A stretch of DNA of 64,000 nucleotides from the NCBI GenBank assembly GCA_044892525.1, contig CM097885.1, positions 67,332,001 through 67,396,000 of the forward strand, read 5' to 3'. Below, piece by piece: positions 18,901-44,800 of the stretch. The position numbers and the translations under genes were made by a program. The notes under the pieces are model-generated. The model had not been told where the DNA came from. It searched no databases and worked only from the letters and a program-made list of their open reading frames with translations. This DNA comes from Schmidtea polychroa (taxonomy: Eukaryota). How positions within the stretch are numbered: the first letter of the stretch is position 1; each line of letters begins with the position of its first letter.

Positions 18901-21900
18901 ATGTCCCTCCAAAGGAGATTCGATTTAGTGAATGAGGCTTTAGGAAGTGAGTTGAAAAAGACGATTTTAGAAATTTGGAAAACTATTTTGACCACTTCGC
19001 CGTTTTTTCATAAATGTTGTAAAAAATAGATTTCTTTGGAGATAAATAAATTATATTTGTCAATTAATTTATTTAAAAATAAATGAACTCACGTTGTATC
19101 GAAATAAATCCAAATTTTTATTTATAAATATCTAAAAATCCTGTAAAAATTAATGATAAATAATTTATAATAGAAAATTTTGAGAAAAAGTAATATTTAA
19201 ATGATTTCATATCTGTATGGATCAAAATCCTTGTTTAGAAAGAAAGTGCTGTTGAAGATTTATTGATTTTATTAAATATAAGAACTTTCAATTTACGCCT
19301 ATGATTCATTTTCAATTGACATTGTATTTATTAAAAAATTGACTATCAATCAATATCGATATCGATGTTTTTTATATCTTTACTGATTCCTAGTCAACTT
19401 TTTAATCAATACGATTTTATTAAAGTTAATAAATAAATTTTCGCTAACCAATAAAATACCCGTTCTTATCATTTCTTAACTATAAGTAAAATAAATGGAA
19501 ATTATAAAAATAATTTACGAAAATGTATTGTGAATAGATAAAAAAACATTCAAAAAATATTTCACCTTCGCTAACCAAGTAGCAGTTTTCCATTCGTGAT
19601 AGGTTTCCAAATACCGACAAGCGTCCGACTGTTTGTTGATGGCACATAACAGTTGAACACCTTCTTTTAAACAGTTGTTGGAAATAAATTGTGTAGCTAC
19701 AAGTTTGACAGTACTGTGGTGAGCATTGATGCTGGATTCCGTTGACTCAGCATTGATTGCTCCATTGGCAGGTGGACGATTTGATTCGTTCGATTGATTG
19801 GCTAGCAAACAAGCCAACTGGAGATCAGAAACATAATTAGAATTGGTTGGTGGAGTTTCAAGCAGTAGTCGAACTGCTCTATCCAAATCTCCTAAATTGG
19901 TTTATTAAATTATAATATAATATTTTGGCGATAATTCCAGTGTTTTAAGATTATTGATTGGATTCGATTCCGAGTCGAATCTAATTACCAACATGAAACC
20001 GATATAAGTCATATAAGCTCAAAACAAATCTGACATTAGACATGACATCGAATATTGCTTTATGTTTTGTTAGGTTGATGATAAAAATGAATCAAATTTA
20101 AAGAAAAATTAAATTACATAATAGTCTTCGATCCCATAGAGATAAATACTTGAACTGTTATGTCATAAAATAGATTTTAGAATATACCAGACTTTGAATT
20201 ATTTAATAAAAACTAATAAAGAGAAATAATATAATGATTACTAATAAAATCCAAATATACTAACCCAACATCATAAATGCTTCTGCACATTTTTGGGTTT
20301 GTTTGTGAGTTGTTCTCTTCCTTTCTAGACTCCAAAGTCGAGACTTTTGGTAATATCGATATATTTCTGTTGACCAAAGAATCTCCCATGGTAGAAAGGT
20401 TTTGTAATTATCAGGGTAGAATACTTTTAGAACTACAATCCAAAATTTAAGCTCGTAATCATCACCGAATAGAATTGCAGTCAAATAACATCGAATGGCC
20501 AAATTCAAAGCAGTCGGTTTAGAGGCGTTCTTAAAAGAATCTAAAAATTGACTGGACGCAATTAAAAGAAATAAAATTATATCAGTATTGATCTAACTAA
20601 TTGTCAAGTTGTTCAAACATTTTTGTTAATTTAGGATCTTTGACTATATCATCTTCTGTTTCCCAAAGTTCAGGGGAAATAATATAATTCTGTCGCCAAG
20701 GTTGATGTTGTAAGTAATGCTTTAAAACAAATGATAGCTTTGGCGGGAGTAGAGAAAGACAAAATACTGGCTCTAAAATTACATTACATCAAAATAAACT
20801 ATTGGTTTTTATAATAAATGAAATTTTTTAGCATTGTTGCTACTTGCTTCTGCTAAATGCAATCTTCAGAAACTTAGTAAAATCACGACAAGCGAATTTT
20901 AAACTTCGAACGAGTATCCCTACATACAAAATTTCAAAGATTATGGATTACACAATACCAAAATATTCATTGAACCGAAAGTGATGTTGTTATATTCAAC
21001 CGCACGAATCTACTAATTAAAAAGATGTGTAGTCCAATCCAAATTATCTAAAATACGCCGCATTACCATAAAGATATGACCCCCTGCTTCACTGAATACC
21101 AATATTCGTCACATGTCAAAACTCATTATAAATCTCTAGATTTTTACTCTCTATATTAACTTTACTGATGTTTGTATGTGCCACGCAAATGTTGTAAGGC
21201 CAAATTTGCCTACTTTCCGCGATCGGATTGAGCTGAAATATGGCAAGTAGATTCGATTTCCAGAACACTACATGCTATCAAAATTTCAGATCGATCCGAT
21301 CACGGAAAATGGGTTAATTTAAAAAATATTGATATGTCAAATCTAGTGTTATTTCCTTATTTCAATGTAAAGTCTTATCTATTCATTAACTTCGGATTAA
21401 AGAGATAACGTAATTATATCTGAATATGTTATATAAGTTTGAACCAATAATTGATATGATTATCATTATCACATTATCACAATCACGTAATTTAGGGTTT
21501 CGTTTGGTCACGCAAAGTGATTTTACGTAATAATACATATTCTATATCTAGGAACTACTTGCTTTTCCCATGGCCAGTTGTATGTGGCGTGTTCAAGAAT
21601 AGGAACTGGTAAGAATTTGTACGTTTTTGCTCCTGACGGTAAAACCCGAAACATTGTATATCAAACTGCATTGTGATGAAAAAATAAATTTATTTCAACT
21701 GCATATTTTATTAAAAGTAACTAATTATACGGAAAATATCATTAACCAGACAATGATTACATTGACATTGTTGTCTCTTCGGCGAGATACATACTATCAA
21801 ATTATCTTGACTAATATCGGGTACCTCAACAAGTTAAATATATTTAAATAATTAAATAAATATATAAATATTTTCCTTACAGCAGCAAAAGTGTATAAAA

Positions 21901-23959
21901 TGCATTAAAATGAGTGATATAAAATCAACGAAATATAATAAACAAAATTAACCAGAAAAGTCCTCTAGGCTGACAACAGAACATGAGGTTTCAAGCGAGG
22001 TGGCTCTGACTATTCTAATATCCGATGTTGCCAGCAGAGCTAGAGTTTGGCCATCATCTAACCAATCAACTCCATTAATACGATTATTTATATCTTTCCC
22101 CCATTTGATTGTTTTCACCACCGTACACTTAAAATACACGACTAATCAATTTTTAATTTGTAAAAAATTGATAATTTGAACATAAAAAGAAGAATTTATC
22201 CTAAAAAATAGAACTATATCCATAATCTATATTCATCGCGGATTGACACTGCTCAAATAGCTTTTAATGATATTAATAAAAGGTAGGATATCAAAGAGGA
22301 AAATTTTATCGAATAGTTTACTGAATTCCAGGATTTAGAAACTAGAATTTAATGTATTTTTTTTAAAAAGTACAAAAGTCTACACTGTCAAAAATTATAA
22401 ATGTTAATTAGTCTGGGAAATCTCAAACATCAAAAGTAAAGAGTTAAGACTTTCTTGGACTGAGGACATTAAAATTGAAAGATTGCATGAAAGACAGACG
22501 GTTCTAAAAGTCGAGGAAATAAGACAAACTCTTTAATCAAGAATAAAGTAATATACTATTTTAACGAAAAGTAATAAAAAAGATATTAAAATACATTTAG
22601 ATAAAATAATAAAAATTATTAAATAATTTAATTTAAAACTTCATTGGAGGTAGTTGTGTAAAATAGTGTCATTTTTGTTGAATTTTATGATTATTTCATA
22701 CAATTTTGAGCTTTTTTAATAAAATTAGTTTTTGATAGGATAGAATAATTATTCTAGAGTCAGGTTTGTTGTAGATTTTTGGAGATTTCGACTTTATGTT
22801 TTTAGAATGATAATTTAGTTTGAAGATATCAATTACGTGTTTAGACTTTCTTGAAAACTGGATATTCATACTGACAAAGCCCTTAAATCTGATGATTGAA
22901 TTCATTACTAACTCTTTGTGATCAATTTAAACAATTGAATATATTTTTATGTAGTCGTATAAGTTTAATTTAATGGACAATTTTGGAAAATTAAAAATGA
23001 AAAAAACTGAAACTAAATTAAAGGTATTGATATTGACTTTGGTCATACTTTCTGACATAGAATGTGTCAAGTTACTTTAAAAGTGCTTTAATTCACGAAT
23101 GTAATACATTGTTTTGCAGATGCCAAGTGAAAGGAGGGACAGTATGAGTAGATGGATTGGGCACCGCTGGCACAAGGCACCGCTAGCACAGTACCCCCCT
23201 CCCCCTCCCCCCGTCAGTAAGATTTTCAAAAATATTCTAAGTCTAAAAGTACATTTTTTTTTCAAGGTCAAATTTAAACAAAGACATATGACTCATCAAG
23301 GTCATTGAAACAAAGACCATGAGTCATCCTATGACTCATCAAATTTTTCAAGGTCATTTAAACAAAGACCATGACTCATCCGATGACTCATCAAGGGCAT
23401 ATGACTCATAATATGACTCATCAAGGTCAAAAAAAATTTCTCAAGGTCATTTAAACGAAGACCATGACTCATCAAGGTCATTTTCAAGGTCATATGACTC
23501 ATAGTATGACTCATATGTCCTTGGAAATTTTTTTCAAGGTCATATGACTCATCAAGGACATTTTCAAGGTCATATGACTCATAGTATGACTCATTTGACC
23601 TTGAAAATTTTTTTTCAAGGTCATATGACTCATCCTATGACTCATCAAGGTCCCTTTCAAGGTCATATGCCTCATAGTATGACTCATTTGACCTTGAAAA
23701 ATTTTTTTCAAGGTCGTATGACTCATTCTATGACTCATCAAGGTCATTTTCAAGGTCATATGACTCATACTATGACTCATCAAGGTCATTCGCAAGGTCA
23801 TATGACTCATCCGATGACTCATCAAGGTCATATTATTATTTTTAAAAAATATTATTATTTTATTTTTAATTTTTTCAAAATTCCCGCTAACGAAAAATAA
23901 TAATCGATAGCTCATTTTAAAGCTCAATCCAAGACCTTTCGAATGAGCTATATAACTTG

Positions 23960-23998
<39 letters not shown>

Positions 23999-26900
23999 GT
24001 ATTAATCTATATACTCCGAGTCTATCCGACAAAATATTTTGTCCCCCTATGGGTAATGCTCACAAGGGTACTGCTCACGCTCAACAACTCGCATTCGATT
24101 ATTTTATTTTTTTAAGGTCATATCATTATTTTTCAAAATATTGCGTAATAATAATAATTTTCTTTAAATCGTTGATTATATGATAATATTTTTATTTTTG
24201 TTTTAATTATCGATTACTTAATAATTTAATTTTGTTTAAATCGTTGATTATATAATAATATTTTTGTTTTTGTTTTAATTATCGATTACTTAATAATTTA
24301 ATTTTGTTTAAATCGTTGATTATATAATAATATTTTTATTTTTGTTTTAATTATCGATTACTTAATAATTTCATTTTGTTTAAATCGTTGATTATATAAT
24401 AATATTTTTATTTTTGTTTTAATTATCGATTACTTAATAATTTCATTTTGTTTAAATCGTTGATTATATAATAATATTTTTGTTTTTGTTTTAATTATCG
24501 ATTACTTAATAATTTAATTTTGTTTAAATCGTTGATTATATAATAATATTTTTATTTTTGTTTTAATTATCGATTACTTAATAATTTCATTTTGTTTAAA
24601 TCGTTAATTATATAATAATATTTTTTGTTTTAATTATCAATTACATAATAATTTCATTTTGTTTAAATCGTTAATTATATAATAATATTTTTTGTTTTAA
24701 TTATCAATTACATAATAATTTCATTTTGTTTAAATCGTTGATTATATTATTTTTTTTGTTTTAATTATCGATTACGTTATTTTTTTTTTCAAGGTCATAT
24801 TATTATTTTTCAAAATATTATTATTTTCAAGGTCATATTATTAATTTTCAAAATATTATTATTTTCAAGGTTATATTATTATTTTTCAAAATTTTATTAT
24901 TTTCAAGGTCATATTATTACTTTTCAAAATATTATTATTTTCAAGGTCATATTATTATTTTTTGTTTTAATTATCAATTACTTAATAATTTAATTTTGTT
25001 TAAATCGTTGATTATATTATTTTTTTGTTTTAATTATCAATTACATAATAATTTCGTTTTGTTTAAATCGTTGATTATATCATTTTTTTTTGTTTTAATT
25101 ATCGATTATGTTTGTTTAAATTATCGACTATGTAATAATTTAATTTTGTTTAAATCGTTGATTATATTATTATTTTGTTTTAATTATCGATTACGTTATT
25201 TTTTTTTTCAAGGTCATATTATTATTTTTCAAAATATTATTATTTTCAAGGTCATATTATTAATTTTCAAAATATTATTATTTTCAAGGTCATATTATTA
25301 TTTTTCAAAATATTATTATTTTCAAGGTCATATTATTAATTTTCAAAATATTATTATTTTTAAGGTCATATTATTATTTTTTGTTTTAATTATCAATTAC
25401 TTAATAATTTAATTTTGTTTAAATCGTTGATTATATTATTTTTTTGTTTTAATTATCAATTACATAATAATTTCGTTTTGTTTAAATCGTTGATTATATC
25501 ATTTTTTTTGTTTTAATTATCGATTATGTTTGTTTAAATTATCGACTATGTAATAATTTAATTTTCTTTAAATCGTTGATTATATTATTATTTTGTTTTA
25601 ATTATCGATTACGTTATTTTTTTTTTCAAGGTCATATTATTATTTTTCAAAATATTATTATTTTCAAGGTCATATTATTAATTTTCAAAATATTATTATT
25701 TTCAAGGTTATATTATTATTTTTCAAAATATTATTATTTTCAAGGTCATATTATTATTTTTCAAAATATTATTATTTTCAAGGTCATATTATTAATTTTC
25801 AAAATATTATTATTTTCAAGGTCATATTATTATTTTCAAGGTCATATTATTATTTTTGTTTTAATTATCAATTACTTAATAATTTAAATTTGTTTAAATC
25901 GTTGATTATATTATTTTTTTGTTTTAATTATCAATTACATAATAATTTCGTTTTGTTTAAATCGTTGATTATATTATTTTTTGTTTTAATTATCGATTAC
26001 GTTTGTTTAAATTATCGATTATGTAATTATTTAATTTATTATTATTATTAGGAAAGATAATAACGCCCGCNNNNNNNNNNNNNNNNNNNNNNNNNNNNNN
26101 NNNNNNNNNNNNNNNNNNNNNNNNNNNNNNNNNNNNNNNNNNNNNNNNNNNNNNNNNNNNNNNNNNNNNNNNNNNNNNNNNNNNNNNNNNNNNNNNNNNN
26201 NNNNNNNNNNNNNNNNNNNNNNNNNNNNNNNNNNNNNNNNNNNNNNNNNNNNNNNNNNNNNNNNNNNNNNNNNNNNNNNNNNNNNNNNNNNNNNNNNNNN
26301 NNNNNNNNNNNNNNNNNNNNNNNNNNNNNNNNNNNNNNNNNNNNNNNNNNNNNNNNNNNNNNNNNNNNNNNNNNNTTCATAAAACTTAATTTCTACCTCA
26401 ATTACATGATTTTCAACATTTGCATGATTATTTTAATAATTTTCAATATTTTCATAATTTCCAACATTTTCATGATTTTCATAATTATTAATATTTTCAT
26501 GGATTTTTAACATTTTCATAATTTTCTACATTTTCAATATTTTCATTATTATTTCAGGAACATTTTCATTAGTTACATGAACATTTTCATCAAATATTTT
26601 TCAAAGTAATATTTCCGTTAGCTTATTTTCAAACAGTTCTTATTATTACTTTTATTATTATTTACAAAGTTGTATTATTATTATTATTATGGTTATTATT
26701 GCAAATATTCATAAAACTTAATTTCTACCATAATTACATGATTTTCCACATTTTCATCATTTGCATGATTATTTTAATAATTTTCAATATTTTCATAATT
26801 TTCTACATTTTCAATATTTTCATCATCATTTCAGGAACATTTTCATCAAATATTTTTCAGAGTATTATTTTCAAAGAATTATTTTCAAAGAATTATTATT

Positions 26901-27126
26901 ATTATTATTATTATTATTTTTATTATTTTTATTATTATTTGGAAAGTTCTAATTATTATTTACTTAAATATTTATAAAATATTTATAATTTATACGTCAA
27001 TTACATGATTTTCAACATTTTCATCATTTGCATGATTATTTTAATAATTTTCTACATTTTCATGATTATTTCAGGATTTTTTTCATCGAATATTTTTCAA
27101 AGTATTATTTTCAAAGTTTTTATCAA

Positions 27127-27157
<31 letters not shown>

Positions 27158-27539
27158 TGCGAAGTTCTCATTATTTTATTTTCGATGTTTTATTATTATT
27201 TACTTAAATATTCATAAAACTTAATTTCTGCATCAATTTACGATTTTCAATATTTGATGATTATTTTCAGGAACATTTTCATAATTTTTAACGTTTTCAT
27301 CATTTTCAATATTTTCATCATTTTCAACATTTTCATTATTTTCCATATTTTCACGATTTTCAACATTTTCAGGAACATTTTCATCATTTTCTATATTTTC
27401 ATGATTTTTAACATTTTCATAATTTTCACGATTTTCAATATTTTCATCATTACTTTCTTCAAAATTCTTAGTTTATAAAATATTATTATTATCATTTTCA
27501 AAATTATTTTCAAATTTCTTATTATTTATTTTCAAAGTA

Positions 27540-27623
<84 letters not shown>

Positions 27624-30600
27624 CTCCTTGTCTATCCGACAAAATATTTTGTCCCCTTATGGGTACTGCTCACACTCAACAGGTTGCAAGGTTACTAGTC
27701 ATGCTTATTATACATTTGATGGTTACAATTTCTAAATTTTGAAAACTCTAATTTGATTGGCTATCTCAATTTTAATAAATGTAAAAACAAAAGTAATTTA
27801 TTTATTAAGAAATTTATTACTGATGATTTCTACAAGTAAAACTGTTGAATATGAATGTGTAAATCACAAAACACATTTGGTAACTTTATTATTTTGTCAA
27901 TATTTTTTATATATGTCACTTATGTCCTACTAGAAATAAGGAAAAATTAAGTCCAACCTATTCTGAAATTTCATTGAAATTTTTCAACAACACAGTTGAA
28001 GATTTTATAAATAATCATGATACTTACAGTGATAAGCAAATCATAAATATTTTAAAAATTTTCAAACATTCCTCTATTGAATATTTGATTGATTTATTTA
28101 ATTATGATAAATGCATTTTGAAGTTATCTAGTTATTTAATGTATTTAGAAAAAACAGTGGTAAACAACGATTCACTGAATGAATTACTTTTGGAGTTGCA
28201 TGTATTTAAGGTTGAAACCGGGATATAGTAGATTGATTTATGAATGGATAGCAAAAGCCGACTTGATTGAAAATAAGCTAACGGAAAAACTGAACGATGT
28301 TAAGAAAAGGTATTTAACCTGTTCAATTTGTAAAGAAAATCAAGTTTCGATTTTGTATTTACCGTGTGGTCACGTAATTGTTTGTTCTAAGTGTCACGAG
28401 AAGAATGTTCGCAATCGTCAAGCCTGTTTAATACTGATTAATGAATATCATACTATATACATGTAAGTTCTCAATACAAATCAATACAATATCAAAGTCA
28501 AATGAATTATTAACAGACATAATGACGGTACTATAATGTAGGAAATTTTCAAACATTGAATAATATGAAATCAGCTTGGTAATTAATTATATTGGGCGCA
28601 ACTACCAAATGTTGATGATATGATGAAGGGAATGGTATTTATAATATTATTTTAAGATTATTCAAAATGAAATATAACCATGAGTTCATCAAAATGGAAA
28701 AAGATCTTCGCAAGAACCATGAAGATGCTGGATGTATTGGTTATTATTTTTTCGGAAATAAATGTTTTAATTTGTTTTTATAAATTTATTGTTTTATTGT
28801 AATACTTTTTGATTAAAATATATTCATTTTGTTTTAATATTTGTATTAATTTTTTTATATAGTGGTTATTATATATATGGAAATTTACAATTATATATAC
28901 AATTATATTTACAATTATTATAAATCATAATGATGCTTTTCTTCTGTCCATTGATTTTCCTCTGATATTACTGCCATAATCATCTTCGACAAAATGTAAA
29001 GATAATATTTCTAGTGTCTTTGTTAATTATGCCCATTTATTGCAAAGTCTTTGTTAATTATGCATTTGTATTGCAAATTTATTAGTTATACAATTATATT
29101 ATTTTTTCATAATATTATTATTTTTAATTTTATTATTATGATTATTTAACAATACCATATAGCAAATTTTTAGGCAATTTAGTGAAAAGTACATGGTTAT
29201 TTTAAATATATAACAATTTCTTAAGTAAAATATTTCCAGATAAATTTAAAAATTTAGTTAGAAATCCATGGTTTTTGGCTGTACCATTTAATTAAAATAT
29301 TCTTGGATTCATAACAAATTTTTTATATAGTTGATAGTAATACCAATTATCTCAATTATTTAACTAGAAACATAACTGAATTCTTAGGTAATATAGTATT
29401 TTTTTAGTTAATTTATAAATATTATCTGACATTTTGATGTATCAATGCAATATACAACAAATTAATCAATAAAAACCATAGCATATTGTAAGTTTTTATA
29501 TATAGTCTGAATTTATCCGACAATATATTTTGTCCCCCTATGTGTATTTGTCGTAAGGGTACTGCTTACATTCAACATGTCGCAAGGGTACTGCTTACAT
29601 TCAACATGTCGCAAGGGTACTGCTTACATTCAACATGTCGCAAGGGTATATTAATTAAAGCACATGTATATTAGTTAAATTTTCTTAGGTAATTTAGTGA
29701 GAAATGGATGATCATAGATATCAGAAATTCGTGAATATTTTGAATGTAACTTACCGAATTCTCATTTCGAGCGACTAATTTATTGGTTAACTTTGTCATG
29801 TTTAGTCATTTAAAATAATATTTAGCAAAAGGTAAGATATGAATATTTAGTATTTCATAGGTAATTTATTCATGTAATGTTCATTACAATAGTTAATATA
29901 ACTTCGTGGGAAATGCATATTCATTAATAACAACATATATTCATTGATAATTTTGGTAGAAAGTCTTTATCATTTGGAGTAAATTTCTATCTTTGTTTGA
30001 GGCAAAAGGAGTCATAATAGAAACATGATCATTTAGTTATCATTTAACCAATTAAGGTGCTTATTAGTTAGAAATATAGGGTTACAATTCTTTTCTAATT
30101 TATTGAGATGATCATTGGGTGTAATATATCTTTGTGAGAAATACATGCTTAACATTATTAAATAGGGATTTTGAGTAACCTTTTACCAAAACAGCGATAT
30201 TTTGTGCGAATAATTTAAGAATATTGGTTAATTTTCTCTTTTTTAGTCATTTAAAATAATATTTAACAAAGGTAATTTAGCAAAATATCATTGAAAGATT
30301 TATCCATCCGATAACTATATTTCTTCAATAGATTTTACCCTTAATATTCAACCGATTTAATTTCTAGAAATCTAATTAAAATCATAAAATATTTTCAATA
30401 AAGATCAATTTTCTTTAGCTGTTGTCGATTTCCAACTTTTAAGTCAATATTTCTCAAGTTTTGTCACAGATATCCCCACAATGAATAAAATAACTTCTTA
30501 AATAAAATAATTTAATAACCTTTGATATCAATCCCAATTAATTCTAAAGATTTCAAATATTTCATTGTCAAAACCAAGTAAATAGATCATTAACCCTAAA

Positions 30601-33600
30601 CGACTTAATAAAACAATGGTTAATTAATAAAAATTGGTTCTAAAACATAAATTACTGTACAATAACATTCATCACAACCTAATAAAACGATATAATTTCA
30701 CAGGAACTATTATTAATTCATAGCTAAATACTGACTATGTCCCTTTGATATTTTATCAATAAGAACATTGTCGATTTAAATAGAGATTTCAAACATTTCC
30801 GCCTTAACCGATCCCTCACTAAATATTTCTACCCCATTAAATACCCCCTTTAAAAATCATTTATTACCATCTTAACTGAACCTTCACTAAATCCAACCGA
30901 CTTTAATATATCAATTCTCTTAAAATCCATAGAAAATTCTTCAAAATATGAATTTTATTTAATTGTTACAGACATCCTTCCATTGAAATAATTTAGTATC
31001 TAAATTCATGTAGTAAGAGCCCACTAAAAGATCACTAAAATCAATATTTTCTACAAATATTTCACCACATTTACCATCAAATACCTAACTAGAAATGAAA
31101 TATATTGATCATAATTCTTCATCGATTCAGCCAATTATATAGCAATTATAACCGTGATATATCTTTCAAAATCACAAATTTCAGTATATTTTACAATAAT
31201 TTTCAAGTAGATTTCAAATATATCATCATGATAAAATTAGCTGGTTTCAACTTTAGATTTTCAATATTTAAAAGTTCATCAATATTCGTAGAAAATATAT
31301 GAAAGAATTATTTTGTCAATATCATTACAAAGTCATCATAAAAATTAAATAATAATCACTTGATTATTGTAAAAACTCTAATTATTAACCTAACTGTCAT
31401 TAAAAATAATTTTTATTTAAAATTAAATTTAAAAACAAGTCAATAAAATATAGCAAATTATCCAGAAATTAATTAAATTTGTCTTAGAATTTAAATTAGA
31501 CCTTAAATTTTCAATTATTCACAAAATGGTTAGTAATAATGTTAGTAAAATCCCGCTAACTCTAAAAATTACCAATGAATTTAATGCTAAATAATAACCA
31601 AATATTTGCCTAAATAAAAACATTAAAACACACCAGTACCTTTACGACCAGTACCCCTACGAGCAGTACCATTTGTGAACAGTACCCATAGAGGGAGAAA
31701 ATATCTTGTCGGATAAACTCAGAGTATATATAATAAAACGAATTAACAATAACTCCATCAAATTAAATCAGCCAAATTAACACAAATTTTGATAAAAAAT
31801 CTTATTCTAAAATGGTAAGAAGCGTAAAGTCGAAAGATAATTTTAATAACACTCGAGATAAATTAACAATATTATTCTCAGATGGTAAGAATCTTCATTA
31901 AAGTTAGAAATTATAAGAACCAACAATTGCTATAAAGTATTTAATCGAATTTGGTTTTGTTGTTTTATGTCTTTCGGTTATATTTGAGTAAGATTTCGTG
32001 TGTCCCTTTTAACTTTGAATGCTAATTTTCATTGAAAAGAGTAATGTATCTTAAATTATCTTTTAGAATATTTGTTTTTGAAAATGAAATATTTAGTGTA
32101 AAATAGTAAATTTAATAATAAATTGCTAATATATAAGGACTTAATCAAAATTTAAAATATGAATTTATCATAATTACTCAGTCAAATACCATTCACGGTT
32201 TCTTCTGTAATAAAATAATCATTTGGGTCAAAAATGGTACTGCTCGTAGGGGTACTGGTCGTAAAGGTACTGGTGTGTTTTAATGATTTTATTTAGGCAA
32301 ATTTTTGGTTATTAATTAGCATTAAATTCATTGGTAATTTTTAGAGTTAGCTGGATTTTACTAACATTATTACTAACCTTTTTGTGAATAATTGAAAATT
32401 TAAGGTCTAATTTAAATTCTAAGACAAATTTAATTAATTTCTTGATAATTTGCTATATTTTATTGACTTGTTTTTAAATTTAATTTTAAATAAAAATTAT
32501 TTTTAATGACAGTTAGGTTAATAATTAGAGTTTTTACAATAATCAAGTGATTATTATTTAATTTTTATGATGACTTTGTAATGATATTGACAAAATAATT
32601 CTTTCATATATTTTCTACGAATATTGATGAACTTTTAAATATTGAAAATCTAAAGTTGAAACCAGCTAATTTTATCATGATGATATATTTGAAATCTACT
32701 TGAAAATTATTGTAAAATATACTGAAATTTGTGATTTTGAAAGATATATCACGGTTATAATTGCTATATAATTGGCTGAATCGATGAAGAATTATGATCA
32801 ATATATTTCATTTCTAGTTAGGTATTTGATGGTAAATGTGGTGAAATATTTGTAGAAAATATTGATTTTAGTGATCTTTTAGTGGGCTCTTACTACATGA
32901 ATTTAGATACTAAATTATTTCAATGGAAGGATGTCTGTAACAATTAAATAAAATTCATATTTTGAAGAATTTTCTATGGATTTTAAGAGAATTGATATAT
33001 TAAAGTCGGTTGGATTTAGTGAAGGTTCAGTTAAGATGGTAATAAATGATTTTTAAAGGGGGTATTTAATGGGGTAGAAATATTTAGTGAGGGATCAGTT
33101 AAGGCGGAAATGTTTGAAATCTCTATTTAAATCGACAATGTTCTTATTGATAAAATATCAAAGGGACATAGTCAGTATTTAGCTATGAATTAATAATAGT
33201 TCCTGTGAAATTATATCGTTTTATTAGGTTGTGATGAATGTTATTGTACAGTAATTTATGTTTTAGAACCAATTTTTATTAATTAACCATTGTTTTATTA
33301 AGTCGTTTAGGGTTAATGATCTATTTACTTGGTTTTGACAATGAAATATTTGAAATCTTTAGAATTAATTGGGATTGATATCAAAGGTTATTAAATTATT
33401 TTATTTAAGAAGTTATTTTATTCATTGTGGGGATATCTGTGACAAAACTTGAGAAATATTGACTTAAAAGTTGGAAATCGACAACAGCTAAAGAAAATTG
33501 ATCTTTATTGAAAATATTTTATGATTTTAATTAGATTTCTAGAAATTAAATCGGTTGAATATTAAGGGTAAAATCTATTGAAGAAATATAGTTATCGGAT

Positions 33601-36282
33601 GGATAAATCTTTCAATGATATTTTGCTAAATTACCTTTGTTAAATATTATTTTAAATGACTAAAAAAGAGAAAATTAACCAATATTCTTAAATTATTCGC
33701 ACAAAATATCGCTGTTTTGGTAAAAGGTTACTCAAAATCCCTATTTAATAATGTTAAGCATGTATTTCTCACAAAGATATATTACACCCAATGATCATCT
33801 CAATAAATTAGAAAAGAATTGTAACCCTATATTTCTAACTAATAAGCACCTTAATTGGTTAAATGATAACTAAATGATCATGTTTCTATTATGACTCCTT
33901 TTGCCTCAAACAAAGATAGAAATTTACTCCAAATGATAAAGACTTTCTACCAAAATTATCAATGAATATATGTTGTTATTAATGAATATGCATTTCCCAC
34001 GAAGTTATATTAACTATTGTAATGAACATTACATGAATAAATTACCTATGAAATACTAAATATTCATATCTTACCTTTTGCTAAATATTATTTTAAATGA
34101 CTAAACATGACAAAGTTAACCAATAAATTAGTCGCTCGAAATGAGAATTCGGTAAGTTACATTCAAAATATTCACGAATTTCTGATATCTATGATCATCC
34201 ATTTCTCACTAAATTACCTAAGAAAATTTAACTAATATACATGTGCTTTAATTAATATACCCTTGCGACATGTTGAATGTAAGCAGTACCCTTGCGACAT
34301 GTTGAATGTAAGCAGTACCCTTGCGACATGTTGAATGTAAGCAGTACCCTTACGACAAATACACATAGGGGGACAAAATATATTGTCGGATAAATTCAGA
34401 CTATATATAAAAACTTACAATATGCTATGGTTTTTATTGATTAATTTGTTGTATATTGCATTGATACATCAAAATGTCAGATAATATTTATAAATTAACT
34501 AAAAAAATACTATATTACCTAAGAATTCAGTTATGTTTCTAGTTAAATAATTGAGATAATTGGTATTACTATCAACTATATAAAAAATTTGTTATGAATC
34601 CAAGAATATTTTAATTAAATGGTACAGCCAAAAACCATGGATTTCTAACTAAATTTTTAAATTTATCTGGAAATATTTTACTTAAGAAATTGTTATATAT
34701 TTAAAATAACCATGTACTTTTCACTAAATTGCCTAAAAATTTGCTATATGGTATTGTTAAATAATCATAATAATAAAATTAAAAATAATAATATTATGAA
34801 AAAATAATATAATTGTATAACTAATAAATTTGCAATACAAATGCATAATTAACAAAGACTTTGCAATAAATGGGCATAATTAACAAAGACACTAGAAATA
34901 TTATCTTTACATTTTGTCGAAGATGATTATGGCAGTAATATCAGAGGAAAATCAATGGACAGAAGAAAAGCATCATTATGATTTATAATAATTGTAAATA
35001 TAATTGTATATATAATTGTAAATTTCCATATATATAATAACCACTATATAAAAAAATTAATACAAATATTAAAACAAAATGAATATATTTTAATCAAAAA
35101 GTATTACAATAAAACAATAAATTTATAAAAACAAATTAAAACATTTATTTCCGAAAAAATAATAACCAATACATCCAGCATCTTCATGGTTCTTGCGAAG
35201 ATCTTTTTCCATTTTGATGAACTCATGGTTATATTTCATTTTGAATAATCTTAAAATAATATTATAAATACCATTCCCTTCATCATATCATCAACATTTG
35301 GTAGTTGCGCCCAATATAATTAATTACCAAGCTGATTTCATATTATTCAATGTTTGAAAATTTCCTACATTATAGTACCGTCATTATGTCTGTTAATAAT
35401 TCATTTGACTTTGATATTGTATTGATTTGTATTGAGAACTTACATGTATATAGTATGATATTCATTAATCAGTATTAAACAGGCTTGACGATTGCGAACA
35501 TTCTTCTCGTGACACTTAGAACAAACAATTACGTGACCACACGGTAAATACAAAATCGAAACTTGATTTTCTTTACAAATTGAACAGGTTAAATACCTTT
35601 TCTTAACATCGTTCAGTTTTTCCGTTAGCTTATTTTCAATCAAGTCGGCTTTTGCTATCCATTCATAAATCAATCTACTATATCCCGGTTTCAACCTTAA
35701 ATACATGCAACTCCAAAAGTAATTCATTCAGTGAATCGTTGTTTACCACTGTTTTTTCTAAATACATTAAATAACTAGATAACTTCAAAATGCATTTATC
35801 ATAATTAAATAAATCAATCAAATATTCAATAGAGGAATGTTTGAAAATTTTTAAAATATTTATGATTTGCTTATCACTGTAAGTATCATGATTATTTATA
35901 AAATCTTCAACTGTGTTGTTGAAAAATTTCAATGAAATTTCAGAATAGGTTGGACTTAATTTTTCCTTATTTCTAGTAGGACATAAGTGACATATATAAA
36001 AAATATTAACAAAATAATAAAGTTACCAAATGTGTTTTGTGATTTACACATTCATATTCAACAGTTTTACTTGTAGAAATCATCAGTAATAAATTTCTTA
36101 ATAAATAAATTACTTTTGTTTTTACATTTATTAAAATTGAGATAGCCAATCAAATTAGAGTTTTCAAAATTTAGAAATTGTAACCATCAAATGTATAATA
36201 AGCATGACTAGTAACCTTGCAACCTGTTGAGTGTGAGCAGTACCCATAAGGGGACAAAATATTTTGTCGGATAGACAAGGAG

Positions 36283-36336
<54 letters not shown>

Positions 36337-36713
36337 TACTTTGAAAATAAATAATAAGAAATTTGAAAATAATTTTGAAAATGATAATAATAATATTTTA
36401 TAAATAAACTAAGAATTTTGAAGAAAGTAATGATGAAAATATTGAAAATCGTGAAAATTATGAAAATGTTAAAAATCATGAAAATATAGAAAATGATGAA
36501 AATGTTCCTGAAAATGTTGAAAATCGTGAAAATATGGAAAATAATGAAAATGATGAAAATATTGAAAATGATGAAAACGTTAAAAATTATGAAAATGTTC
36601 CTGAAAATAATCATCAAATATTGAAAATCGTAAATTGATGCAGAAATTAAGTTTTATGAATATTTAAGTAAATAATAATAAAACATCGAAAATAAAATAA
36701 TGAGAACTTCGCA

Positions 36714-36762
<49 letters not shown>

Positions 36763-38827
36763 TTGATAAAAACTTTGAAAATAATACTTTGAAAAATATT
36801 CGATGAAAAAAATCCTGAAATAATCATGAAAATGTAGAAAATTATTAAAATAATCATGCAAATGATGAAAATGTTGAAAATCATGTAATTGACGTATAAA
36901 TTATAAATATTTTATAAATATTTAAGTAAATAATAATTAGAACTTTCCAAATAATAATAAAAATAATAAAAATAATAATAATAATAATAATAATAATTCT
37001 TTGAAAATAATTCTTTGAAAATAATACTCTGAAAAATATTTGATGAAAATGTTCCTGAAATGATGATGAAAATATTGAAAATGTAGAAAATTATGAAAAT
37101 ATTGAAAATTATTAAAATAATCATGCAAATGATGAAAATGTGGAAAATCATGTAATTATGGTAGAAATTAAGTTTTATGAATATTTGCAATAATAACCAT
37201 AATAATAATAATAATACAACTTTGTAAATAATAATAAAAGTAATAATAAGAACTGTTTGAAAATAAGCTAACGGAAATATTACTTTGAAAAATATTTGAT
37301 GAAAATGTTCATGTAACTAATGAAAATGTTCCTGAAATAATAATGAAAATATTGAAAATGTAGAAAATTATGAAAATGTTAAAAATCCATGAAAATATTA
37401 ATAATTATGAAAATCATGAAAATGTTGGAAATTATGAAAATATTGAAAATTATTAAAATAATCATGCAAATGTTGAAAATCATGTAATTGAGGTAGAAAT
37501 TAAGTTTTATGAANNNNNNNNNNNNNNNNNNNNNNNNNNNNNNNNNNNNNNNNNNNNNNNNNNNNNNNNNNNNNNNNNNNNNNNNNNNNNNNNNNNNNNN
37601 NNNNNNNNNNNNNNNNNNNNNNNNNNNNNNNNNNNNNNNNNNNNNNNNNNNNNNNNNNNNNNNNNNNNNNNNNNNNNNNNNNNNNNNNNNNNNNNNNNNN
37701 NNNNNNNNNNNNNNNNNNNNNNNNNNNNNNNNNNNNNNNNNNNNNNNNNNNNNNNNNNNNNNNNNNNNNNNNNNNNNNNNNNNNNNNNNNNNNNNNNNNN
37801 NNNNNNNNNNNNGCGGGCGTTATTATCTTTCCTAATAATAATAATAAATTAAATAATTACATAATCGATAATTTAAACAAACGTAATCGATAATTAAAAC
37901 AAAAAATAATATAATCAACGATTTAAACAAAACGAAATTATTATGTAATTGATAATTAAAACAAAAAAATAATATAATCAACGATTTAAACAAATTTAAA
38001 TTATTAAGTAATTGATAATTAAAACAAAAATAATAATATGACCTTGAAAATAATAATATGACCTTGAAAATAATAATATTTTGAAAAATAATAATATGAC
38101 CTTGAAAAAAAAATAACGTAATCGATAATTAAAACAAAAAAAATAATATAATCAACGATTTAAACAAAATGAAATTATTATGTAATTGATAATTAAAACA
38201 AAAAATATTATTATATAATTAACGATTTAAACAAAATGAAATTATTAAGTAATCGATAATTAAAACAAAAATAAAAATATTATTATATAATCAACGATTT
38301 AAACAAAATTAAATTATTAAGTAATCGATAATTAAAACAAAAACAAAAATATTATTATATAATCAACGATTTAAACAAAATGAAATTATTAAGTAATCGA
38401 TAATTAAAACAAAAATAAAAATATTATTATATAATCAACGATTTAAACAAAATGAAATTATTAAGTAATCGATAATTAAAACAAAAATAAAAATATTATT
38501 ATATAATCAACGATTTAAATAAAATTAGATTATTAAGTAATCGATAATTAAAACAAAAACAAAAATATTATTATATAATCAACGATTTAAACAAAATTAA
38601 ATTATTAAGTAATCGATAATTAAAACAAAAATAAAAATATTATCATATAATCAACGATTTAAAGAAAATTATTATTATTACGCAATATTTTGAAAAATAA
38701 TGATATGACCTTAAAAAAATAAAATAATCGAATGCGAGTTGTTGAGCGTGAGCAGTACCCTTGTGAGCATTACCCATAGGGGGACAAAATATTTTGTCGG
38801 ATAGACTCGGAGTATATAGATTAATAC

Positions 38828-38881
<54 letters not shown>

Positions 38882-41800
38882 TAACAAGTTATATAGCTCA
38901 TTCGAAAGGTCTTGGATTGAGCTTTAAAATGAGCTATCGATTATTATTTTTCGTTGGCGGGAATTTTGAAAAAATTAAAAATAAAATAATAATATTTTTT
39001 AAAAATAATAATATGACCTTGATGAGTCATCGGATGAGTCATATGACCTTGAGAATGACCTTGATGAGTCATAGTATGAGTCATATGACCTTGATGAGTC
39101 ATAGAATGAGGCATATGACCTTGGAAAAATTTTTCAAGGTCAAATGAGACATACTATGAGTCATATGACCTTGAAAGTGACCTTGATGAGGCATACTATG
39201 AGTCATATGACCTTGAAAATGACCTTGATGAGTCATAGTATGAGTCATATGACCTTGAAAAAAATTTCCAAGGCCATATGAGTCATACTATGAGTCATAT
39301 GACCTTGAAAATGACCTTGATGAGTCATGGTCTTCGTTTAAATGACCTTGAGAAATTTTTTTGACCTTGATGAGTCATATTATGAGTCATATGACCTTGA
39401 TGAGTCATCGGATGAGTCATGGTCTTTGTTTAAATGACCTTGAAAAATTTGATGAGTCATAGGATGACTCATGGTCTTTGTTTCAATGACCTTGATGAGT
39501 CATATGTCTTTGTTTAAATTTGACCTTGAAAAAAAATGTACTTTTAGACTTAGAATATTTTTGAAAATCTTACTGACGGGGGGGAGGGTACTGTGCTAGC
39601 GGTGCCCTGTGCCAGCGGTGCCCAATCCATCTACTAGTATGTGACATTTCCAGAAGTGTTGATTTAAGAAAAAAATGGGAGTTCGCCAAAGTGAGATTAA
39701 ACTTAAACATTTTACTTTTCATTTAGAATGTTTGAAGTAGACTAATTTTCCAAAAAAATATCCTCATTAAAATCCAGTTTTATAATTTTGACGCCCTTGC
39801 TAATAATTAAGAGACACCATATTGAAATGACAACCAAAAATTGAAAGAATCACGAAATTTGGTGCGTGCTAATCTACTACTCAATAACACGAAAACAAAA
39901 TTTCGAAGCATATTAAGACAACATGGTTCAGATAGATATTATTGTATATGCTAAGAAAAACGGTATAGAAATCTGTATAGAACTGATTAAACAAAGCTGT
40001 GAACTTGCTGACAATAACTGGAATGAGTAAAATTAATACATTCTAAAATGTAATATTCTGTTAAAGTTGAATATAAATTTGTTCCAACTGAACACAGATT
40101 TTGTGATATTAGTTACTAAGAAATCGACCAAACAACAAGGACAGATAAAACTGCATATTTCTACGACACTGATATCTAGGGTTTATATACCGGTTTACCG
40201 GAAAATTGGCAAAAAAACACTCGGTAAATTTACCGGTAAATTAAAAATTTTTGATAGAAATTTTTATTCTGAAATTTTATTCTGATATTTCCGATAGTGA
40301 ATATGATCACATGATCATTGAATCTTTTCAACGTGTTCTTCTAAAGAAAATACTAATTTATATGTGGCTGATGTAACGTTAAAATTTATGTTGAATGAAT
40401 TGTCTAAACAAAATAATTTTATAAGCACTGAATTAAAAAAAACCCTTAATATGCAGCATAAAGGAGAGAAGGATTATCCATTGAGATATTCTGCAATATT
40501 TGACAGACCCTAATTTGGTTTTTTCGAATCAGGAAAACTACGATATTTTTCATATCACAAATAAAGCAATTTTCGATTATTGTTGTTGATAGTCAGATTC
40601 AGTTATTCAGTCAAATTCATCCTGATTTGGACACCAGTTTAGAGTCAAATAATAAAAATATTGACACTTCTACAGTTAATGTAGAAATGCCTATGAATCA
40701 GAAATTATACTATCTGAATAAACAAAAAACCGAATGCCAGGAAGGATCAGTTCCACAACCAAAATAATTGGCAATATATTGTGAAAAAAGAATTGTAATA
40801 CTTCCGCCAAGAGAAAGTACGCGTAAAGTATATTCAAATGGTATATGATTATTTGATGACAATTCGTCCAACAAGTGTTGATTCAGAAAGGGTATTCTCG
40901 GGCTCTGGGTTATTTTGTACAAAAATAAAAACAAAATTAGGGAATAGGACTTTAAATAATTTAAGTTTTCTGAGGAGCTATTTTTTAAAAAATGTTAATA
41001 AATAGAAAACTATTATTTAATAAAGCTATTTCTGTGTCATTATTATTTTTTTTTACTTTATTTTTATTTGTTTCTAAAATATTGTTGGGTTATAAAATAA
41101 TTAAAATTAAAATTGAATTATATTTGTAATTAAAAGTGCCTAAAAGAGGAAAAACAAGAAAATGAAATTAATTAATTAGCTAGTAGAAAGAAATCCCGAG
41201 TTGGGTAAACAAAGAGAAAAGTAAACAGAAGGAAGATTTGGGCCCATTATCGTTTCACAATCATTAATGGGAGAAGACCAAGAAAAAGATAGTGCGTGCA
41301 GAAAGACCCAGGCGGGCCATTAATTATCTTTGTTCGTTGGACCATTCTGGGTGACAGCCGAAGCAGATTTGTGGAGTCGAATGTCAAGAGAGAGATGGGC
41401 TCGGCAATAACCATTTGTCATCCCGATTTCGAAGAGTATATAAGGAATGGAAAAATCAAAGCAAACAGGCATTTTGCCTCGGATAGGGACAAGAAGAAAC
41501 TGAGCTTAGGGTAATCAGAAAGTTAGGGAAACGAACGGATAGAGTTAGGAAATAATTGAGACGTGAAAAGAAAATTGAATTGGAAGCGGACCAGATCAAA
41601 TAGGAAAAATTCGACTAAAGGGTGAATATTGATAAAGATTTTGACAAAGCATGAGCGCCTAGCGGAGAACCGATTAAACTGGTAAAACTCTGTCGTTGAT
41701 TGTATCGTTGGATTGTGAGAGATTTGTGATTCGAATATACGTTGGGTAGTTTATTGTTTTGTAATTTACGATTAAAAGGACAAGTGGAGTCAGAGGTTAC

Positions 41801-44800
41801 CGACTTGAATTAATAAAACCCAACAATATTATTATAGTTTGTTTAGATTTATAATAATACATTAATCTATATTTCACATATTTTATATTTTTGAAATAAA
41901 AATCGTGAAATGGAAATTTAAATTTGTATTTTTGTCAACTTTATTTTATCTTTTAGTACGAAAAAATTTCCCGGTAATTTCCCGGTAAACCGGTAAATTG
42001 ACAATCCCTACTGATATCTATACGCTGTTTGATTTTACCCAAATTAACTTGAGCTGCTACCAATGACAATGTTTTTAAGTTCCAAAATAAAGTACATACT
42101 GTGCTCGGTATTAAGTTTAACTGGAAATTCATTTGGAACTTCTAGATTTTGTTTTTCTATATGAAGTTGACAAATTTCGAAATCTTTGTATTTCACTATG
42201 AATTCTATTAAAAATTCACCGTTTCTAATTTCTTCACCGGTCATTCAGCAAATAGAAGTGAAGTCTTTATGTTTACGTGCTGTAAATGGACAAATTCATT
42301 TAGCTAATTTGGTATCGAAAGAGAAATGTGGGAAAAACAAATTTTGATAGATTAAAATGAAATAAAATTTATTTTCTAAACCTTGTATACTCAAACCGAA
42401 AACCTTGATATTTGTAATTGTATAGAGTTCAATCGACCAATCAACAAATTCACATTTGTATTTCCATTATTAAAACTCCCGTATTTCACTTCTTCGTTCA
42501 ACTATATCTCAACATATATTTGCTAGCTTGTAGTATATTAAACAAGTAAATGATAATATAAGCCTTTTTGCTGCAAAGCATATATTAAATAAAATGAAAT
42601 AATTTTCAATTATAAAACTAATCCTTATCAATTTTGAAATTGATCTCTTAAAATTGATGAGGATTATTTTATAATCGAAGATTATTTCACTTTATTCAAT
42701 ATATACTTTGCAGCAAAAGGCTTATATTATCATTTACTTATTTAAAGAGTGACAAAGTTTCTCAATTAATTCAAAGTTTTATTTAAGTTACATAATCGGT
42801 AAGCAAACTCGGAGGAGTTTGCTCTCAATCAATATACCAGCACAAAACATCAACATAAGTGTAGTAATACTAGAAAAGAATTATTATTGCATTATTAGAT
42901 TAGATTTATTAAAAAAGCAAAAGATATGGTAGTTATTGGTCAAACGTATTTACCTGTTTCCAATCCCAAGTAGAAATTCCATCGGCACAAAGTATAACAA
43001 CAAATTTGTTTTGACCAAATGTGACACTATCAAATGATATACGATTGATTTTACCCAAATTAACTTGAACTGCTACCGATGTCAAAGTTTTAAAGTTCCA
43101 AAATAAAGCACTTCCATCAGAATCGCCAATTATTACCACATTATTTTTATAAGCCATAGCCGAAATCTTATTAACAGGAGTCTGAATTATTCGAACAGAC
43201 TATCAGAAAACATTCCACTAAATTCACTAACTTCAATGGGAACTTGACGACCCTTTATGATCACATTTCCCTCTACGATTACATGTTGCATGTAATTTCC
43301 AGAATCGATGCTGAGAAATTTTTCTTTCGAATAACTGTCATAAAAATTAAAATATGCAAATAAAAATGGAATTAAATATAAAATGTATCATTTTAAAAAC
43401 ATTGCAAAAGTCTTCAGACGTATACTGGAGATTCACCTTCACTGAAGTCAATGCAGAAAAAGTTTCTATGTTCATTCTCGATTTATCACTACTCCAGAAA
43501 TTATTAATAATTGAAATTACTCTTACAATAGGTATTTCTGGCCAGAAAAGCATTTGCTCATAGTTCCTGCATCAGATTAACGACATTTAACAAACAAGCA
43601 AGTGGTGCGTGTTAAGAAATCGGCTAATTCAACTAACGTCCCGCAGTGCCACCCCATTGAAAAAAATGCGCGCCGAAATTAAAATACAAGTGTTTCGTGA
43701 AATAAACAAATTTCAAATATATATATTGGAAACTTTCTTGCTGTTGAGTCTTGGCTATCGTAATGACATCTTCTGTTTACATCATTAGTATTGTGTATAT
43801 CTGTAGTTCCAATACACAAACCCTTATTATTGACTAAAATAATTTTGATAGAATAAACGTCGTATATATATAGAAATTAAATCTATAAAGTTCACCATTT
43901 AGACGGTGGTACTTCCGTGTTATCTTACCCCCAAAAATTAAATTATAAAATACAATTAAAATAACAATATAAAAAATGAGAGAATACATTATTGATGACA
44001 TTATTGAACATGAATTTATTAAGGCTACCTGTGATTTATGTGATTATGTGAGTTTATGTGGCGCAAACGTGTTCTAAGCAACAGTGCCGATGTGTTCGAC
44101 ACTATTCTCAACGACATTGTGGTTTTCTGGCCACCTGGATGACCATTTACAAACTCTTTACAAACTTTGCTGAGTTTGTAACTGTGATTTAGAAAATAAA
44201 TATAATAATTATATGTGTTCTTTTTTAATTTAATTTTTGGGGGTAAGATAACACGGAAGTACCTAGACTGTTAAGGTTAAAGAAGTAATTAATATCATTA
44301 TATCGATAGCTAATAATTCTAAAATTTTCGATACACAGTAGCGAAGTGACATTGGCACATATAATTCTGACAGCTATTTCTAGGTCCACTGCTATTTATT
44401 TTCATTAACTTCAACATTTTTTTCGTTCAAAGTCAGAAGCTTGAATTTGACAGATGAGTGCTTCTCTCATGAACAGCTGTGTGTGGGTGAATGACAAAGT
44501 CAAAGGATCGCTCAACATTGTTAATCATCGGCGATGATTAACAGGAGATTAAAAATATTGTATAATTTTTGAAAAAATCCGGGTCTTTTTCGTGGAAACC
44601 GGGACACGAATAAAAAATAGTTGAAAAATTCATTATCCTGCACCTGATGGTGCAATGTAAATACTTTCGTTCTAAATTTGAACCATTTTTAGTTTCACTG
44701 GTGAAAAACAATAATTAACATTAAATTTTATAATCGCTCTAACGTATATCTCTTGCATTGTAAAACAAAGAAAAACTTCAACGTACTAGAAAATTTTTGT

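Follow-up and report, generated by a model that had tools for sequence, protein, structure and literature searches.

A palindromic Polinton-type derivative in a WDR11 intron of Schmidtea polychroa and its possible fold-back origin

An inverted element within a WDR11 intron

The window analysed here, a 64,000-nucleotide stretch of the Schmidtea polychroa assembly GCA_044892525.1 (contig CM097885.1, positions 67,332,001 to 67,396,000, forward strand), carries a 16,489-bp element, 604 N among them, inside a single intron of WDR11 (Table 1). The exons on either side of the element are consecutive; the weak downstream exon is followed by stronger WDR11 exons at 20773-19554, and the best named match for the gene is from an insect (46%). 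The element has a GC content of 22%, compared with 30% for its flanks.

The termini are AGTAGATGG at 23147 and CCATCTACT at 39635, and the terminal inverted repeat (TIR) ends precisely where the target site duplication (TSD) begins. This agrees with the initial annotation, which had described AG...CT ends and a perfect 6-bp TSD: AGTATG stands on both sides, an exact 6-mer match with a chance of ~3e-4, and the duplication is 6 bp, not 7, as the 7-mers at the two flanks are unequal. Maverick ends carry the motif (AGT)2//(ACT)2 or (AG)3//(CT)3; AGTAGA//TCTACT agrees with (AGT)2 at 5 of 6 bases, the motifs being derived from vertebrate elements. The Polinton-like length proposed earlier was also borne out, since 16,489 bp (N included) lies within the 13-25 kb Polinton/Maverick range and near the vertebrate Maverick mean of 16,862 +/- 1,678 bp. 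The 47.5 kb of flanking DNA in the window contains no further copy.

As assembled, the element consists of an 8,532-bp left arm and a 7,408-bp right arm in inverted orientation, separated by a spacer of 549 bp, much as had been proposed (~8.5, ~7.4 and ~0.55 kb). Self-BLAST of the window pairs both arm segments as inverted copies: 26376-31678 matches 37513-32228 (98.7% over 5,325 columns, with 9 mismatches and 4 gaps), and 23147-25102 matches 39635-37835. The difference in arm length is mostly due to a 990-bp tandem-array block that is missing in the right arm. Tandem repeats cover 77-81% of the terminal blocks, and unique nonrepeat DNA amounts to only ~4.6 kb; the AT-rich arrays include TTA microsatellites and are interrupted by the N gap. 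No Rfam family was found in 23147-32300.

Table 1. Features of the element and its insertion site (positions in the window)
Feature	Position	Strand	Remarks
Whole element	23147..39635	.	16,489 bp including 604 N
Left TSD, AGTATG	23141..23146	+	6 bp, flanks left end
Right TSD, AGTATG	39636..39641	+	6 bp, flanks right end
Left arm	23147..31678	+	exact complementarity to 31674, then 1 mismatch and 3 matches
Right arm, inverted copy of left	32228..39635	-	7,408 bp
Unique spacer	31679..32227	.	549 bp, N-free; begins with the 5' half of cassette 4 (74 bp)
Outer zone, candidate native TIR	23147..23888	+	2.1% divergence; mirror 38956-39635
Loop-proximal zone	31463..31674	+	6 substitutions in 212 bp, all transversions; mirror 32232-32443
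Subterminal 21/42-bp array	23258..23831	+	rich in TCAAGGTCA and TGACTCA words; mirror ~39010-39530
AT-rich tandem arrays	24157..27620	+	72-, 63-, 38-, 419- and 9/18/27-bp units; mirror 36286-38669
Left assembly gap	26071..26375	.	305 N
Right assembly gap	37514..37812	.	299 N; same arm position as left gap
Cassette 1	24005..24095	+	TATA-like word, 16-bp palindrome, GGTACTG repeats; mirror near 38804 (-)
Cassette 2, upstream of RING gene	27615..27700	+	mirror near 36274 (-)
Broken gene, helical plus IAP/MYLIP-type C3HC4 RING	27974..28466	+	Pfam zf-C3HC4_3, E 7e-10
Mirror copy of broken RING gene	35440..35932	-	same breaks as left copy
Cassette 3	29496..29650	+	29-bp tandem repeats; mirror near 34393 (-)
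Cassette 4, intact	31628..31743	-	spans left arm/spacer boundary
Cassette 4, truncated copy (recombinant junction)	32228..32275	+	new junction
WDR11 exon upstream of element	42945..43178	-	profile positions 564-639
Next WDR11 exon, downstream of element	21972..22130	-	profile positions 636-686; alone weak (5.3 bits), in register

Gene content and family assignment

The earlier statement that no gene is readable held for the core genes by Pfam and did not hold overall, as both arms contain a RING pseudogene. Its lesions are a frameshift near 28180 and a substitution at one RING cysteine position, and the region 27823-28466 shows 1 difference from its mirror in 644 bp. PDB profile matches of the protein were cIAP and XIAP RINGs. 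An intact relative elsewhere, P0002, is 92% identical, and the gene in the element is intronless by comparison; because P0002 and a further relative, P0011, lie elsewhere, the family is probably multicopy. A tie of this family to Polintons was not found among sequence matches, which came without names, or among fold matches, where RING alone was matched at TM-scores of ~0.3; the main text of the adintovirus paper uses "RING" 0 times and "apoptosis" 0 times. Searches for phage relatives of P0002 or of the gene block gave no match, 0 of 15 RING-family members matched PHROGs, and the ESM Atlas returned only generic RING clusters below 0.9, with no match for the N-terminal part of P0013. A scan of bacterial and archaeal genomes yielded 2 loci from 6 pattern matches, in the RING region only.

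A candidate F-box/LRR-like remnant, seen by eye at ~30200-31400 on the minus strand, was rejected: it had 0 Pfam hits and a weak codon signal, and 0 of 435 candidates reached E <= 1 in the one frame searched. A stop-depletion test was powerless here, as the RING control failed too.

None of the 18 six-frame translations of the left arm and spacer matched pPolB (Pfam, outside the N gaps), and neither rve integrase nor a transposase was detected by Pfam in the same sequence; the scan did pick up rve in an unrelated flank open reading frame (16274-17365). Packaging ATPase, protease, and major and minor capsid genes also gave no Pfam match, although decayed or divergent capsid genes may escape such a search, with only the ~4.6 kb of unique nonrepeat DNA to hold them. 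Because none of these Polinton genes was found, the element is a Polinton-type derivative and not a Polinton, and it is placed in this family by its ends, TSD, and size. It has in common with Polintons/Mavericks (adintoviruses) the 6-bp TSD, AG...CT ends near (AGT)2//(ACT)2, a length of ~16.5 kb, and an accessory-type gene within the end region (PMC8097293). The differences are that no core gene is present, that only 549 bp are unique in the element, and that the inverted repeat measures 7.4-8.5 kb versus 46-1,500 bp. Polinton TIRs have been reported at 46-1,447 bp in one source and 100-1,500 bp in another, so these arms lie outside the 0.05-1.5 kb range and, as noted at the outset, far beyond usual TIRs, at 5-6 times the reported maximum of ~1.5 kb. 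The Polinton-type ends and TSD described in the initial annotation are thus upheld.

Junctions, assembly gaps, and arm divergence

The repeated cassette 4 runs unbroken through the left junction and is truncated at the right one, so that one native and one recombinant junction are seen; this supports fold-back copying of one end. At the putative switch point, 3 matching bases beyond 1 mismatch (p ~0.03) may represent microhomology. Both arm/spacer junctions are free of N. Two N gaps interrupt the arms at an identical base, which suggests that reads from the two arms were probably pooled in the assembly; at each of the four gap-bounding ends the two arms agree to the base, in exact runs of 275 and 782 bp, and the inner contig (26376-37513) connects to the flanks solely across the gaps. 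The palindromic core depends on scaffolding, and the short-read-style assembly leaves the middle of the element unproven. Because 6 sites distinguish the two arm ends, which a fresh fold-back chimera would not show, an MDA-type library chimera is unlikely.

Divergence between the arms is 2.1% in the outer 0.74 kb, 0.27% in the next zone, and 0.04% in the inner 5 kb, and it reaches 2.8% in the 212 bp adjoining the spacer. As assembled, the inner arms (2 substitutions in 5,048 positions) differ from the loop zone (6 in 212; p = 1e-7) and from the nonarray part of the outer zone (3 in 382; p = 0.003); the outer and loop zones show no significant difference from each other (p = 0.6). The outer zone holds 14 of the 17 outer substitutions, 11 of these 14 within a tandem array, in which shuffled units raise the count, and away from the loop the inner arms differ at 2 substitutions and 4 indels. 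In a post hoc observation, transitions made up 0 of 6 substitutions in the loop zone, whereas two control repeat pairs had 13 among 28 (P = 0.024), a hint that another process acted at the loop zone. Such uneven divergence is not expected if a snap-back molecule simply formed and then inserted, barring assembly collapse or homogenisation of the arms. A collapse model (3.2%, word size 65) retained a mean of 7.3 substitutions beside the anchor, and in this model assembly collapse by itself reproduced the observed profile. Given this result and the similar divergence of the outer and loop zones, the arms may be equally old along their whole length, as a fold-back route outside the chromosome predicts.

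Fold-back copying, alternatives, and related systems

Because the arms extend beyond TIR maxima of ~1.5 kb and contain a gene, DNA that is normally unique was duplicated, and, as assembled, the same end is present twice in inverted orientation. We regard a fold-back origin, by whatever route, as fairly probable. Our main reading, with a probability of roughly 0.4, is that the element is a dead, nonautonomous Polinton/Maverick-type derivative that was fold-back copied from one end by an extrachromosomal route. A polymerase starting at one end would have copied ~9 kb inward, after which the 3' end would have folded back on a short imperfect match in the repeated cassette and re-copied the same end; the resulting molecule would have carried the same end twice and no core genes, and the retroviral-type integrase of a helper element could have inserted it in the WDR11 intron, generating the 6-bp TSD. 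The Polinton parent, the template switch, and the helper are what we infer. The fold-back of one end proposed in the initial annotation is thus favored by the asymmetric, one-ended duplication and by cassette 4; it would have taken place either during extrachromosomal replication or by repair after insertion.

The same arrangement could also have arisen within the chromosome, which seems rather unlikely to us: an element with a TIR of ~0.75 kb would have inserted, break repair would have copied ~8 kb of the left end rightward, and the core would have been deleted, as in Galileo 2RT copies, leaving a one-off palindrome that was never mobile. The divergence gradient suits an older native TIR plus a younger copy, the outer zone falls inside reported TIR ranges, the RING breaks are common to both arms, and the transversion-only cluster at the junction could reflect error-prone repair synthesis. 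Nevertheless, the array inflates the outer counts, collapse alone gives the same profile, and a random window would more readily catch a member of a multicopy family than a one-off; moreover, the mechanism set out for Galileo recruited tracts of hundreds of bases, not 7 kb (PMC3573991). It is also possible, if unlikely, that the element and its outer TIRs are real and the interior is an assembly artefact, the inner contig being misplaced from another copy or replacing a longer core. The flanks are correctly joined (consecutive WDR11 exons, exact TSD), the spacer is N-free and lacks an exact internal repeat across which a core could have dropped out (the best repeat is 30 bp at 83%), and the inner arms keep their indels and substitutions away from the loop; such an artefact would fit, however, with the identical gap-bounding ends and near-equal gap estimates (305/299), with near-identity of the arms far from unique anchors, and with a probably multicopy family. 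The two arm ends represent different haplotypes, and each continues into its own end of the spacer; an arm-spacer-arm junction with at least 0.2 kb per side therefore probably exists somewhere in the genome.

A parent with native, gene-bearing TIRs of at least 8 kb, of which the present copy is an internal deletion that clipped the right TIR, appears highly improbable: reported Polinton TIRs are far shorter (see above), and with a core added to its two 8.5-kb TIRs such a parent would be longer than the usual 13-25 kb, although a 40-kb maximum has been reported. An asymmetric deletion would, however, give an identical junction, and TIR length has been called undefined and variable (PMC11131425). 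A Foldback-like nonautonomous DNA transposon belonging to a superfamily other than Polintons, with a captured RING gene, would account for the long, internally repetitive TIRs, a Foldback/Galileo hallmark, and for the lack of detected Polinton genes. We consider this extremely improbable, since the TSD is 6 bp versus 7 for Galileo, the termini come close to Maverick motifs, and the RING gene, intronless and with its own repeated upstream cassette, looks more virus-like than host-like.

In linear, end-primed replicons, one end can be copied back on itself, as in the hairpin and palindromic plasmids derived from pGKL1 and the snap-back genomes of adenovirus and AAV. A precedent is phi29, a protein-primed replicon whose template-switch subgenomic DNAs, of 1-8 kb, derive mainly from one end (PMC4974454). 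All four yield free molecules; the present copy lies in the chromosome, flanked by a TSD, and any replication of it would be hypothetical. By analogy, the phi29 molecules and the Galileo 2RT copies are the closest precedents. The latter (Foldback-like, P superfamily) are likewise nonautonomous and consist of nearly nothing but long, internally repetitive TIRs, extended by recruiting sequence adjoining one TIR (PMC3573991). Galileo differs in its TIRs, which reach ~1.26 kb, the present arms being 6 times longer, and in its 7-bp TSD and P-type transposase, versus a 6-bp TSD and no transposase found. Inverted-repeat expansion is said to have been reported for Polintons, with Jurka et al. 2007 among the sources cited (PMC3573991). 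Halocafeteria virophage/PLV copies that lack most core genes carry TIRs and TSDs; they are also integrated, with a proposed dependence on complete copies, and differ in having 52-nt terminal palindromes rather than a whole-element palindrome (10.64898/2026.07.28.741278).

If a family of such fold-back elements exists, it would be a material trace left by end-primed strand-displacement replication, and a narrow spread of lengths within it would serve as a test of packaging. The packaging-size selection suggested in the initial annotation would be read from one copy, whose length takes in gap estimates and arrays of unequal size. Polinton replication and virions have been inferred nearly entirely from gene content. 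We regard it as quite doubtful that these are multicopy, helper-dependent Polinton satellites, in which one-end palindromes are replicated, packaged at parent length, and integrated in trans; that tandem arrays and enhancer-like repeats pad them to parent size is a similarly speculative part of that proposal. Were it correct, polintovirus defective-interfering particles would have been kept in an animal germ line, and the virion stage would gain indirect evidence. Should the element stem from a single repair event or from faulty scaffolding, it would be a curiosity. Surveys that demand core genes, or that accept TIRs only up to 2.5 kb and loops only from 15 kb upward, miss elements of this kind (PMC11131425).

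Insertion site and palindromic structure

The insertion is real, and its architecture is unusual. Its AGTAGATGG start at 23147 and CCATCTACT end at 39635 are flanked on either side by AGTATG, bearing out the position and 6-bp TSD proposed in the initial annotation (the chance of such a 6-mer is ~3e-4), and no match between the element and the 47.5 kb of flank was found at E <= 1e-4. In the host, an AT-rich animal, WDR11 exons lie in both flanks on the minus strand (Pfam), and a profile from seven homologs gave 13 exon matches of at least 5 bits, in order across the window. As the exons bracketing the element are consecutive, it lies within a single intron, which measures ~20.8 kb, or ~4.3 kb without the element; together with the exact TSD, this indicates a genuine insertion with correctly joined flanks.

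The palindrome, with its arms of 8,532 and 7,408 bp and 549-bp spacer, also holds as assembled: in self-BLAST, 26376-31678 aligns to 37513-32228 at 98.7%, with a corresponding match between the outer parts. Two N gaps, absent from the initial annotation, lie at an equal position in each arm, and all four bounding ends are base-identical, which we infer to be the outcome expected from pooled reads of both arms. Because there is a gap in each arm, the palindromic core is a separate 11.1-kb contig linked to the flanks by scaffolding only, and an interior misplaced in the assembly is conceivable, if unlikely. Points in favor of the core are that the spacer is N-free and lacks exact internal repeats and that the arm ends joined to it on its two sides are different variants. 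At the gaps, both outer contigs break off at a short GC-rich word surrounded by very AT-rich sequence; the 300 bp left unread there may be hard to sequence.

Features in and around the element (window positions)
Feature	Position	Strand	Basis or remark
WDR11 second beta-propeller	45465-45872	minus	Pfam
TPR_WDR11	19515-19901	minus	Pfam
WDR11 exon, profile positions 564-639	43178-42945	minus	profile; nearest to element on one side
WDR11 exon, profile positions 636-686	22130-21972	minus	profile; weak alone; nearest on other side
N gaps	26071-26375; 37514-37812
GC-rich words at contig ends	26064-26070; 37813-37819
Broken RING gene	27974-28466
C3HC4 RING domain	~28317-28433		Pfam
Short open frame	27823-27935		by eye
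Internal cassettes with GGTACTG	24022; 27632; 29513; 31716
GGTACTG in terminal 50 bp	23188-23195
TCAAGGTCA zones	23258-25844; 38039-39529
Direct repeat in arm	29764-29835; 30199-30275
Tc1-like transposase frame	55877-57010	plus	DDE_3, E 1e-24
Inverted repeats near Tc1-like frame	near 55887-55963; 57098-57154
Integrase fragment	16274-17365	minus	H2C2, rve, SH3-like domains
hAT-like transposase fragments	2170-3457; 10845-11327; 14458-15685		weak Pfam for two, remainder by eye
MITE-like elements	42538-42745; 43908-44263
Dispersed repeat	21546-21845; 50117-50415		92%

Coding content and repeats

The left arm and spacer were scanned in full against Pfam in all six frames, with stops given as X (18 frames). 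No pPolB, integrase, ATPase, protease, or capsid was found; the sole family type was the RING domain, part of a broken gene whose breaks are common to both arms. The one match among 53 candidates was P0002, an intact relative of 163 aa on an 862-bp record (cluster of five sequences), from which the element's gene differs at 13 of 163 residues outside the break; the search identity of 85% is too low, since the X read-through was set ~35 bases past the true break. A wider RING-protein search gave 338 matches at E <= 0.001, mostly to the RING only, and the alignment took in 13 short matches also covering the helical part. The element's RING is of the IAP/MYLIP type, and its structure model has a pLDDT of 83. 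Large DNA viruses commonly encode small RING E3s, but the match is confined to the RING and provides no tie to Polintons. A short open frame 5' of the gene has Cys/His spacing that appears B-box-like; it had no Pfam match, and P0002 begins further downstream.

Tandem repeats occupy 77% of the left arm's terminal 4.5 kb (3,225 of 4,169 bases), compared with 1-2% of the flanks. A ~70-bp cassette, of which the left arm and spacer together hold four copies, contains a TATA-like word, a 16-bp palindrome, and GGTACTG repeats; a role as promoter or origin is a guess. GGTACTG recurs near the terminus and may be a candidate binding site of an element or host protein. All but one of the 53 window occurrences of TCAAGGTCA fall inside the element (0.36 expected), as do 41 TGA[CG]TCA words (7 in the flanks), counts that are not independent because the words belong to tandem-array units. 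They match NR5A/FTZ-F1-type and AP-1-type sites, and the subterminal array is possibly enhancer-like. The direct repeat within the arm aligns over 78 columns at 81%, and both copies lie between AG and GT, as a short exon would.

Origin of the palindrome

As assembled, the element probably derives from a Polinton-type element by fold-back. Cassette 4 crosses the boundary between spacer and left arm unbroken, and the right arm starts mid-cassette, which marks the left arm and spacer as original and 32228 as the new joint. Past one mismatch at the junction, three more bases match (p ~0.03), possibly a remnant of the annealing site; the junction is consistent with fold-back copying of one end. The best reading, to which we assign a probability of about 0.4, is that the template was switched while the element replicated from its end and that the fold-back product would then have been inserted by the integrase of a helper element. 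Phi29, for which PMC4974454 describes accumulating template-switch molecules of 1-8 kb, mostly from one end, is a precedent for such an end-primed origin. The main rival, chromosomal repair after insertion, is less likely; such repair has been put forward to explain Galileo copies that carry recruited TIRs (PMC3573991). The cut cassette is also consistent with asymmetric deletion in a parent with natively long TIRs, which we regard as improbable. A non-Polinton origin seems very improbable. Set against Polintons as described in PMC8097293 and PMC10748475, the element agrees in TSD and size and nearly in end motif, but it lacks the defining genes and lies outside the TIR range. We class it as derived from the Polinton type rather than as a Polinton itself; in the way it works it resembles a Galileo 2RT copy, built almost wholly of two long TIRs, or a snap-back defective genome.

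Divergence between the arms is uneven. The outer 0.74 kb has 14 substitutions in 668 aligned bases (2.1%), 11 of which fall inside a tandem array; the next stretch inward has 3 in 1,125, the inner arms have 2 in 5,048, and the loop zone beside the spacer has 6 in 212 (2.8%). The inner arms differ from the loop zone at p = 1e-7, whereas outer versus loop gives p = 0.6. An older native TIR with a recent copy of the interior fits this pattern, as do arm-to-arm homogenization and arms truly 2-3% diverged throughout, their middle merged by the assembler. When merging was simulated at 3.2% with word size 65, 7.3 substitutions were kept on average, and of 15 parameter pairs, 9 gave a probability above 0.2 of keeping 7 or more; the simulation aimed at 7 loop substitutions, a count now 6 with the junction base left out. 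None of the 6 loop substitutions is a transition, whereas two control repeat pairs have 13 transitions among 28 (P = 0.024); this deficit is a hint only, as it was spotted after looking at the data.

Precedents, length, and neighboring elements

No description of a whole-element palindromic Polinton was found in the full-text literature searched, most subscription papers and Repbase being outside its coverage; it included passages of PMC6431247, PMC11131425, PMC8502044, PMC8532177, PMC4443254, and 10.64898/2025.12.11.693146. For nonautonomous or defective Polintons, a single paper, on Tlr1, was found there. Inverted-repeat expansion is stated as reported for Polintons, citing Jurka et al. 2007 among others, in PMC3573991. 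Virophages and PLVs are known to have core-less copies that retain TIRs and TSDs (10.64898/2026.07.28.741278). Supplementary element tables of Polinton papers could contain long-TIR copies, and an earlier description of such a palindromic element is quite possible.

The element's length, which includes estimated gaps, is 0.2 SD off the vertebrate Maverick mean, and symmetric versions would measure 15.4 or 17.6 kb; the suggested packaging selection is beyond the reach of the present data, which comprise one copy.

Another WDR11 intron carries the uninterrupted 377-codon Tc1-like frame, with short inverted repeats nearby. The retroviral-type integrase fragment, which we take to be Gypsy-like, lies 5.8 kb from the element. 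The window also holds hAT-like fragments, two small MITE-like inverted-repeat elements, and a 300-bp dispersed repeat.
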